From sequence record OM630585.1: DNA of 64,000 nt; one strand, 5' to 3'. Made by a program: the position numbers and the translations under genes. Positions 53,315 through 55,031 of this stretch are shown here, piece after piece (the stretch's first letter is position 1; each line of letters starts with the position of its first letter). The DNA is from Escherichia phage vB_EcoM_LNA6. The notes below the pieces were generated by a model. It was not told the DNA's origin, ran no database searches, and saw only the letters and a list, made by a program, of their open reading frames with translations.

Positions 53315-53779
53315 TTACTTTGGATATACACTGTCAAGATAAATGTCAGCTTCCATTCTACGTCTGTTTTTCAGGCCGTTTGAAGTGACCTTCTTACCTT
53401 TGACTGTAACCTTGTTCCACCATTGCATAGCTTCTGCACAACCGGCCTTATTACCAGCATTGTGGCGCTTGATAAATGTGGAATCCTGCATAGCTGTGAT
53501 ACCAATGTTGTATGTTTCACTTACAAGTGCGTCAAACTCATTCTGAGAAGTTGGAACCTTGATGGCTTTGTTCACTGCTGCAACGAACTTTTCAACATCT
53601 GCAAGAAGATACTGTTCAGCTTGTTCAGCGGTAATCTTCATACCCATCTTAACAGGTTTACCAGCAATACAGATTGTTCCATACCCAATTGTAGGGATTC
53701 CAGCAGAATCTTCGTAAGCCTCTAGCTTAAGACCTTCAAAGAACTTAATAGCTTCTAAACCTTTTCTTGAGAGTTGCAT
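53315..53779 (-). CDS. lysozyme (T4-type glycoside hydrolase, endolysin candidate)
   Basis: 154 aa; EGLKLEAYEDSAGIPTIGYG matches T4-lysozyme catalytic region. Confidence 0.8.
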   Translation of the reverse strand: MQLSRKGLEAIKFFEGLKLEAYEDSAGIPTIGYGTICIAGKPVKMGMKITAEQAEQYLLADVEKFVAAVNKAIKVPTSQNEFDALVSETYNIGITAMQDSTFIKRHNAGNKAGCAEAMQWWNKVTVKGKKVTSNGLKNRRRMEADIYLDSVYPK

Positions 53780-54663
53780 TATGCCTCCCCTGCTGGGTTA
53801 ACTGTAACTGTTGCTGCATTAGATGTTACAGAGCCACCTGCACCAGTAACTACACAGGTGTAGCTTCCTGCATCAGCAGCGGTTGCACCTTCTTTGGTGT
53901 AAGTTGCAGCAGTTGCGTCTGGGATGACTTCCTCACCTTTCTTCCACTGATAACCTGTCGCACCTGTTGCCACAACATTCAGTGTTAAGGTCTCACCTTC
54001 AGCGATTTCTTGATTTGCTGGCTGTTGAGTGATTACTGGAAGTGCATTCACAGTAACTGTTGCTGCATCTGAGGTAACACTTGTTCCACCCTCTCCAGAT
54101 ACAACACAAGTGTATGAACCAGCGTCAGAAGGTGCTACTGACTGTTTTGTGTAAGTTGCAGAATTGGCACTAGGGATGTCCTCACCATCCTTTTTCCATT
54201 GATATCCAGTGGCGTTAGTTGCTAGAATGCTTAGAGTAAGTGTGCCACCCTCATTGACTGTTTGACCTGTTGGTTGCTGAGTAATTGCTGGTGGCTTAAT
54301 AGCATCCTTCAACTTAGCATTCAACATTGAGAACGGCTTAACTCTTGCCAACCATTCACAGTAAATTGTGTCAACATCTTTACCATTGATGATTGCATAC
54401 TGCAAATCCATGAAGAAATCAGCAGTTCTCATCTGTGCACCAACACTGTAAAGCAATTCATCACTAAATGGAACTTTGTAGCCTGGTTTGTAGTCAAACT
54501 TCTCAACTTCTGCAATATCAGCTTCAGGCCAATACGAACTGTAGGTGAGTGGTAAAATAGCCTCTTGATATGTTCTAAAATCATATCTCTTACCAGCCTT
54601 TACATTTGCAATGAAGCCCTTCACAAACCCTTTGAAGTCTGGGTAAGTCTTTGCTTTAATCAT
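53779..54663 (-). CDS. protein with two tandem Ig-like domains
   Basis: C-terminal duplicated ~80 aa units (ITQQP...GYQWKK...YTCVV...ATVTVN); N-terminal domain paralogous to next gene. Confidence 0.55.
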   Translation of the reverse strand: MIKAKTYPDFKGFVKGFIANVKAGKRYDFRTYQEAILPLTYSSYWPEADIAEVEKFDYKPGYKVPFSDELLYSVGAQMRTADFFMDLQYAIINGKDVDTIYCEWLARVKPFSMLNAKLKDAIKPPAITQQPTGQTVNEGGTLTLSILATNATGYQWKKDGEDIPSANSATYTKQSVAPSDAGSYTCVVSGEGGTSVTSDAATVTVNALPVITQQPANQEIAEGETLTLNVVATGATGYQWKKGEEVIPDATAATYTKEGATAADAGSYTCVVTGAGGSVTSNAATVTVNPAGEA

Positions 54664-55031
54664 TTCTCTTTAGCCTCTAAATGTGCGTTTAGTCTAAAAT
54701 AACCTTTGTGATGCGGAGATACATCACCAACAACGATACCTTTAACCTTATAACCTTTACCAATTACATACTGGATATCCATAAGGAATCTTCCAAGACC
54801 AACAATATGGAACATTGGATATAATAGATTCTCAGAGTCTGGAATATTGATTTCGGGTTTGTAGGTGCGTTGTTCGATTGTTGGTGTAATATCTTCTTCA
54901 GGCCATTTACTGAGTCTCCATGTCAAAGGTGTTGGGATAACATCATTAAGGTTGTACCTTTCACCATTTTGCACGGAATTGATATAGGATTGTAGGAAGC
55001 AATAAAAGTCTTTTGCACTCTTAGCTTTCAT
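54660..55031 (-). CDS. hypothetical protein (paralog of Ig-like protein N-domain)
   Basis: 123 aa; shares KxKxxxDFxxFxxxxIxNVxxGxRY pattern with 53779..54663. Confidence 0.4.
   Translation of the reverse strand: MKAKSAKDFYCFLQSYINSVQNGERYNLNDVIPTPLTWRLSKWPEEDITPTIEQRTYKPEINIPDSENLLYPMFHIVGLGRFLMDIQYVIGKGYKVKGIVVGDVSPHHKGYFRLNAHLEAKEK

Follow-up and report, generated by a model that had tools for sequence, protein, structure and literature searches.

In the genome of Escherichia phage vB_EcoM_LNA6 a gene for a protein with two tandem immunoglobulin (Ig)-like domains is located directly beside the gene of the lytic enzyme, and the N-terminal part of this protein has a paralog in the gene immediately upstream. 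This raises the question of what a protein of this type does at such a place, and what the additional copy of its N-terminal domain is for. The window examined here is a stretch of 64,000 nucleotides of this genome (sequence record OM630585.1). An earlier note, made from the letters of this window alone, had described the arrangement, had mentioned capsid decoration as one possibility, and had concluded from the location and the duplicated domain that a standard structural gene was not indicated.

The first half of the question finds its answer in recent literature. The protein of 294 amino acids is very probably the known capsid decoration protein Hex-Dec. Two papers of 2025, on Shigella phage Sf14 in Commun Biol (PMC11821841) and on phage Bas63 in Sci Adv (PMC12609058), have described the identity of Hex-Dec, its capsid location, its anchoring, its variable number of Ig domains, and its erroneous annotation as a tail protein. 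The second half concerns the paralog of the anchor domain, a gene which is conserved and expressed late. In this gene lies the small residual value of the locus; it offers a handle on the choice of decoration proteins among quasi-equivalent hexamers.

Gene Order and Transcription Unit

All genes concerned are read from the minus strand. The paralog of 123 amino acids (54660..55031; phrog_4463) comes first, followed immediately by the gene of the 294 amino acid protein (53779..54663), both exactly at the positions given in the earlier note. Immediately downstream lies an endolysin of 154 amino acids (53315..53779), which is a GH24 enzyme of the T4 type, as had been recognised before (Phage_lysozyme, PF00959, E=3e-41; phrog_7). 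The stop codon of the paralog and the start codon of Hex-Dec overlap in an ATGA, and the endolysin start codon shares one base with the stop codon of Hex-Dec. A programmed frameshift or fusion of the paralog with Hex-Dec was considered and rejected, since the junction is an ordinary ATGA overlap which is kept in most relatives examined.

Two terminators known from Felix O1, t35 and t38, are listed in the genome paper of that phage (PMC3185647), and both have equivalents here. A rho-independent terminator is predicted after the endolysin (53288..53305, minus strand), with the same sequence as t35 and a strong fold (–12.9 kcal/mol, z=–3.5). Between a gene of 196 amino acids and the paralog, a GGGGC-TGAT-GCCCC hairpin (55056..55069, minus strand) is the equivalent of t38; its fold is weak (z=–1.9), and it is also kept in phages REP9 and Z31. 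As these two predicted terminators flank paralog, Hex-Dec, and endolysin, the three genes are taken to form one bracketed unit. A scan for sigma-70 promoters did not rise above chance (15 found, 17.9 expected), and no promoter is therefore claimed.

The region matches 231 phage records, nearly all of them Felix O1-like myoviruses of Escherichia, Salmonella, and Shigella hosts (the genus Felixounavirus is given for matching records only where the record states its taxonomy). The phage is itself a Felixounavirus, and the region is 97% identical in nucleotides to Escherichia phage nataliec. The order of 196 amino acid gene, paralog, Hex-Dec, and endolysin is kept in Felixounavirus, Mooglevirus, and Suspvirus, and the adjacency of Hex-Dec and endolysin is common to four Ounavirinae genera, the fourth being Kolesnikvirus.

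Ig-Like Domains and Their Number

The C-terminal part of the 294 amino acid protein consists of two repeats which are 67% identical by BLASTP (E=5e-36) and 66% identical in a domain-by-domain comparison. The first comprises residues 125–208 (54040..54291, minus strand) and the second residues 209–290 (53794..54039, minus strand). They match the Pfam families Ig_3 (6e-22), Ig_2 (1e-19), and I-set (1e-15) in two stretches each. Structure prediction, which the earlier note had proposed, was carried out with AlphaFold2 and yielded beta-sandwiches for both domains with a pLDDT of about 94–95. A Foldseek search with the Ig model retrieved tandem I-set/C2 Ig modules such as those of Robo, titin, and MuSK (E about 1e-15). 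The two repeats of roughly 80 amino acids with an I-set-like pattern which had been seen in the letters alone are thus confirmed by alignment, domain profiles, and predicted fold. Neither these matches nor those of the N-terminal domain and the lysozyme can be put down to chance.

For residues 1–120 of Hex-Dec the AlphaFold2 pLDDT was 30–57, and the Sf14 authors likewise report that AlphaFold failed to reproduce the density of the anchor domain (PMC11821841). As the anchor domain was modelled with such low confidence, in the paralog as well as in Hex-Dec, modelled surfaces were not used and sequence columns were compared instead.

Hex-Dec proteins among the relatives have lengths of 210, 294, 372–377, and 460 amino acids, and a varying number of Ig domains has already been reported (PMC12609058, PMC11821841). 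Ig domain 1 of the 294 amino acid protein is 90–92% identical to the first Ig domains of phages Bas63 and dune, and Ig domain 2 is 95% identical to the fourth of Bas63, 94% to the third of dune, and 98% to the last domain of phage heid. Judged by sequence identity, the two domains are orthologous to the first and the last domains of the three- and four-domain variants. As the two-domain form retains the first and the last Ig domain, the copy number changes as internal repeats are gained or lost.

Identification as Hex-Dec

The 294 amino acid protein aligns from its first residue, over residues 1–290, with chain S of the capsid of Bas63, a Felixounavirus (PDB 9NCF, E=3e-245), and in the same way with chain S of the capsid of the Mooglevirus Sf14, which is gp20 (PDB 9C2D, E=7e-162). 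Its orthologs are thus Bas63 Hex-Dec and Sf14 gp20, together with Felix O1 gp36. The capsid-binding domain (CapBD, residues 1–123; 54295..54663, minus strand), as delimited by alignment with the solved CapBDs, is 85–97% identical to the anchor domains of Felix O1, REP9, and Sf14. Its dN/dS of 0.02–0.055 indicates a tighter constraint than that on the paralog.

Cryo-EM located Bas63 Hex-Dec and Sf14 gp20 on T=9 capsids, as monomers in the centres of the 60 pentamer-proximal edge hexamers, and for both phages no density is reported on the remaining hexamers (PMC12609058, PMC11821841). In Bas63 the CapBD monomer is found in the centres of facet-edge hexamers only, and the predicted Ig-like domains behind it, one to four in number, are too mobile to be resolved (PMC12609058). 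Binding of Sf14 gp20 is attributed to salt bridges of Arg79 and Arg107 with Asp221 of the major capsid protein (PMC11821841). Both arginines are present in the 294 amino acid protein and are invariant in all four Hex-Dec sequences aligned; the gene of the major capsid protein is located outside the window, and the pairing with Asp221 is a result obtained for Sf14.

From the near-identity to the solved homologs we infer the same edge-hexamer-centre position for the protein studied here. Each of the 60 edge hexamers would bear one central monomer, held by its N-terminal CapBD of about 120 amino acids, with Arg79 and Arg107 paired to Asp221 of the major capsid protein. From this anchor the C-terminal Ig-like domains would project outward as a flexible stalk. 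By analogy, this stalk may act like Hoc of phage T4, either by weak adhesion to surfaces and mucus or by an influence on the aggregation of particles.

Presence in the particle is documented for close homologs. Sf14 gp20 was found in particles by mass spectrometry (PMC11821841), and Felix O1 gp36, listed as a "tail protein" of 31.6 kDa, was detected in purified virions by mass spectrometry with 14 peptides and 44% coverage (PMC3185647). Of the possibilities mentioned in the earlier note capsid decoration is therefore the one that holds, with close homologs sitting on the capsids of Bas63 and Sf14, while the conclusion that this was not a standard structural gene fails on function, the homologs being virion proteins by cryo-EM and mass spectrometry. 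The unusual location itself is real, as the gene lies beside the endolysin outside the morphogenesis module, and it is already in the literature: in Bas63 over 10 kb separate the Hex-Dec gene from the structural module (PMC12609058), and the distance of gene 36 from the other morphogenesis genes was remarked upon in the Felix O1 genome paper (PMC3185647). Neither a lack of the Ig fold nor an absence from virions, both named beforehand as contrary outcomes, was observed, the virion evidence coming from close homologs.

The location might suggest an accessory protein of the lysis cassette, for example an Ig protein binding cell wall or glycan alongside the endolysin. The adjacency to the GH24 endolysin is indeed conserved in four genera with overlapping start and stop codons, and paralog, Hex-Dec, and endolysin share one terminator-bounded unit. 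The homologs are, however, physically present on capsids and in virion proteomes, and neither Pfam nor PHROG searches found a lysis-related domain in the 294 amino acid protein. The timing of expression also argues against a role in lysis: by RT-PCR in Felix O1, genes 36 and 37 are maximal at 60 min alongside the morphogenesis genes, whereas the lysin gene 35, like gene 38, peaks at 25 min (PMC3185647). A lysis accessory is hence very improbable. Hex-Dec is transcribed late in a short unit with the paralog and the endolysin. In the tRNA paper on Sf14 the timing classes are assigned by function and not measured.

A tail protein, or a major tail subunit to which an Ig domain has been added, is what most GenBank records state ("tail protein" or "HK97 major tail subunit") and what an end-to-end match to PHROG 3995 ("tail protein") and further matches to PHROGs of major tail proteins (phrog_158, 853, 3575) would suggest, but this reading has next to nothing left in its favour, because the major-tail matches are essentially confined to the Ig region (their best stretches begin at residues 96–126 and end by 208), the non-Ig N-terminal domain matches only the capsid-bound chains 9ncf_S and 9c2d_S with no tail-tube fold found, the Bas63 authors call the tail annotation an error (PMC12609058), and cryo-EM, by placing the homologs on capsid hexamers in two relatives, has already refuted it. 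The database label "tail protein" for Hex-Dec is wrong. The annotation of the window is thereby corrected, and so is that of hundreds of Felix O1-like genomes which serve in diagnostics and phage therapy.

Relation to Other Decoration Proteins

The Hex-Dec of Bas63 (Escherichia phage JohannRWettstein) comes from the same genus and agrees with the protein of the window in a near-identical anchor domain, in gene order, and in the type of Ig domain. It differs in having four Ig domains (460 amino acids) instead of two, with Ig domains 2 and 3 of Bas63 lacking a counterpart here. Gp20 of Shigella phage Sf14 (chain S of PDB 9C2D/9C3A) has an 87% identical anchor domain in which Arg79 and Arg107 are likewise present, and its gene is flanked, as here, by the paralog (gp21) upstream and the endolysin (gp19) downstream. 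It belongs to another genus, Mooglevirus, however, and carries three Ig domains which are only about 56–66% identical to those of the window.

T4 Hoc, a non-essential protein for which a role in adhesion or aggregation has been proposed, resembles Hex-Dec in being a monomer at hexamer centres composed of a small capsid-binding domain and a string of Ig domains (PMC12609058, PMC11821841). In contrast to Hex-Dec it binds the capsid via its C-terminus, so that the domain order is reversed, and its binding domain is smaller and topologically distinct (PMC12609058). PHROG matches named "Hoc-like" span only residues 120–292 of the 294 amino acid protein, which is the Ig part, and homology to a C-terminal capsid-binding domain was not found. 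Protein pb10 of phage T5 (PDB 5LXK, 8ZVI) shares with Hex-Dec the N-terminal capsid-binding domain, the C-terminal Ig part, and the position at hexamer centres. Homology of the Ig part is detectable (E about 1e-12), but pb10 has a single Ig domain and no similarity in the anchor domain. The pb10 alignments are confined to the Ig region, covering query residues 132–207 against 8zvi_a and 133–290 against the chain 5lxk_A of 101 residues. As only the Ig parts are homologous, and as the domain order is reversed in comparison to Hoc, Hex-Dec is placed outside the Hoc and the pb10 families.

A different display domain occurs in Kolesnikvirus (Erwinia phage M7 gp008 and the phiEa21-4 group). The Hex-Dec-like proteins of this genus have a homologous N-terminal anchor, and their gene is located directly upstream of the endolysin, but they carry one Big_2 domain (PF02368) rather than I-set Ig domains, and they are not accompanied by a paralog. 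A word-indexed search with the paralog reached only relatives of at least 67% identity, and more distant members were found by an exhaustive profile search, which among 1.84 billion representative proteins returned only 11 anchor-domain clusters. These include the forms of Felix O1 type, the Kolesnikvirus proteins with anchor and Big_2 domain (clusters P0057 and P0058), an anchor form with a lysine-rich tail (P0059), and a more diverged stand-alone form (P0055), the best match of which in a cultured phage is 49% identical. The anchor domain thus proves to be a narrow module of Ounavirinae type which carries varied display domains.

The Stand-Alone Paralog of the Capsid-Binding Domain

The upstream gene of 123 amino acids arose by an ancient duplication of the anchor domain and has been kept by selection. 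It is known elsewhere as Felix O1 gp37, Sf14 gp21, bas63_0125 (84% identical to the copy in the window), and VpaE1 ORF40. The relationship to the N-terminal 120 residues of its neighbour, already pointed out in the earlier note, amounts to 36% identity over 121 amino acids (E=4e-18). Among PDB entries it matches only the CapBD of 9ncf_S and 9c2d_S (E about 1e-11 by sequence). A fold search with its AlphaFold2 model, which is a modest one (pLDDT 58), retrieved these two chains at a TM of about 0.62 and nothing else significant. No Ig domain was found in the paralog by Pfam search. No PDB chain corresponds to the paralog itself, though Sf14 and Bas63 both encode a copy.

Paralogs and anchor domains have 28 invariant core positions in common. 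At the position of Arg79, however, the paralogs have an invariant glycine, and at the position of Arg107 mostly glutamine or histidine and occasionally arginine. At nine positions a basic residue is always found in Hex-Dec but is not conserved in the paralogs. The paralogs have four new conserved basic positions elsewhere and an invariant family-specific motif of their own, LLYPMFHIVGLG. The two groups are not separated by net charge but solely by where the charged residues are located.

The paralog gp37 is not among the 17 proteins of the Felix O1 virion, though proteins of 9.7–13.7 kDa were detected (PMC3185647); this proteome was stringent, with a cut-off of 25% coverage, and a low occupancy of the paralog is compatible with its absence from the list. 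Likewise, absence from symmetrised cryo-EM maps is compatible with an occupancy which is low or averaged out by symmetry. For Sf14, gp21 is not listed in Table 1 or in the supplement, which neither supports nor excludes its presence in the virion (PMC11821841). The word "paralog" does not appear in the relevant sense in the Bas63 and Sf14 papers, nor do "gp21" and "gp19" in the latter (PMC12609058, PMC11821841). In both structural studies, in the Felix O1 genome paper, and in the paper on VpaE1 the paralog is at most a hypothetical open reading frame and is never discussed. Having no anchor arginines and no Ig domain, and not being in the virion list, the paralog is an anchor-domain homolog and not a Hex-Dec.

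Possible Roles of the Paralog

As to function, we tentatively suggest that the paralog is a late protein, either non-virion or sub-stoichiometric, whose target while heads are assembled would be the hexamer centres or Hex-Dec itself, and not a stable decoration. It is conceivable, if rather doubtful, that it is a so far undescribed late factor which controls capsid decoration, and this could take three forms. As a placeholder it would sit transiently on the hexamer centres of the procapsid, as a competitor it would restrict Hex-Dec to the 60 edge hexamers, and as a cap it would be located on the 20 three-fold hexamers and be hidden by icosahedral averaging.

The main rival to an assembly factor is an Ig-less decoration protein which remains stably on the capsid, on the three-fold hexamers or in competition for the edge hexamers, and which was missed in the maps since averaging erases a monomer that lies on a symmetry axis. 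Such a protein is supported by the anchor-domain fold of the paralog, by its late expression along with Hex-Dec, to which it is probably coupled in translation, and by a remodelled charged surface, as would suit a hexamer in which Asp221 has another geometry. Against it stand the lack of density on the other hexamers in both cryo-EM papers (PMC12609058, PMC11821841), which neither mention the paralog nor contain a chain for it, the absence from the Felix O1 virion list in which smaller proteins do appear, and the replacement of Arg79 by an invariant glycine and of Arg107 mostly by glutamine or histidine. On balance a stable Ig-less cap is unlikely.

That the paralog is a functionless duplicate in decay is scarcely tenable. 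About 232 of the 252 phage records that match, from three genera, contain an intact copy; the gene has the invariant motif mentioned above, and it is transcribed late. Its pairwise dN/dS (Nei-Gojobori) is 0.08–0.16 over a dS of 0.07–1.9, comparable to that of the endolysin (0.03–0.12) and of the 196 amino acid neighbour (0.05–0.12). These values contradict decay and mark the paralog as a functional gene under purifying selection. What could be taken for decay is its absence as a stand-alone gene from Kolesnikvirus and its state in REP9 and Z31, where it has become a pseudogene through loss of its start codon and of about 220 bp inside the gene. From the latter it follows that the role of the paralog, whether in head assembly or otherwise, is dispensable in some lineages, and REP9 and Z31 thereby provide natural knockouts of the paralog for comparison.

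Domain Exchange on the Capsid Anchor

The anchor domain of the capsid decoration protein Hex-Dec is retained in the Kolesnikvirus-type relatives, represented by Erwinia phage M7 (Hex-Dec-like gene at 3501-4121 of its own locus, L012) and by three proteins from the profile search for the anchor-domain family (P0057, P0058, and P0060), and it still adjoins the endolysin. These proteins carry a Big_2 bacterial Ig-like domain in place of the I-set Ig domains of Hex-Dec. The Kolesnikvirus-type architecture is a display domain exchanged on a conserved capsid anchor.

Three metagenomic members of the family were also observed. 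P0055, a diverged protein that consists of the anchor domain alone, has no close cultured relative (best identity 49%), in P0059 the anchor domain is followed by a lysine-rich and apparently disordered tail, and P0052 (209 amino acids) reads like a Hex-Dec with a frameshift inside the first Ig-like domain.

Divergence of the Paralog and Its Loss in REP9 and Z31

Compared with the window copy of the Ig-less anchor-domain paralog (54660-55031), the Felixounavirus paralogs fall into two identity classes, one of at least 95% and one of about 83-88%, whereas the neighbouring anchor domain of Hex-Dec (54295-54663) stays at a steady identity of about 97% within the genus. Between the window and phage BPS15Q2 the dS was 0.73 in the paralog and 0.37 in the anchor domain. 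These sequence comparisons suggest a recombination boundary at the junction of the two genes.

In the relatives REP9 (2806-2997 of locus L003) and Z31 (2806-3570 of locus L004) the paralog is reduced to a pseudogene remnant that has lost its ATG and, by an internal deletion, about 220 bp. The annotation of Hex-Dec in Z31 is split into two fragments of 134 and 55 amino acids, which suggests a one-Ig Hex-Dec with a frameshift or stop.

A Repeated 10-mer Upstream of the Paralog

The exact 10-mer TATTTATAAG occurs twice in the 64-kb window against 0.27 copies expected, a count of two being reached in 1 of 100 shuffles. The first copy (55040-55049, minus strand) lies directly past the GC hairpin t38, 8 nt ahead of the paralog start, and overlaps the ribosome-binding site; the second (56166-56175, minus strand) lies in the divergent promoter region heading the leftward gene block. 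The pair is kept in six Felixounavirus loci, and TATTTATAAG was not found in the loci of Sf14, Moogle, mistaenkt, or M7. It may represent a promoter element; temporal regulation in Felix O1 was called unknown in the genome paper (PMC3185647).

The tRNA Array and Preceding Genes

An array of 26 tRNA genes (58323-63555, plus strand), typical for Felix O1-like phages, includes two tRNA-Met and a tRNA-Lys(CTT). Directly ahead of it is an open reading frame of 471 amino acids (56742-58157, plus strand), itself preceded by a DUF5681 gene (56289-56660). This reading frame is labelled differently among relatives, as RNA-binding protein, vWFA protein, or DUF2828, and an RNA-binding/vWA protein encoded beside a tRNA array may be worth separate attention.
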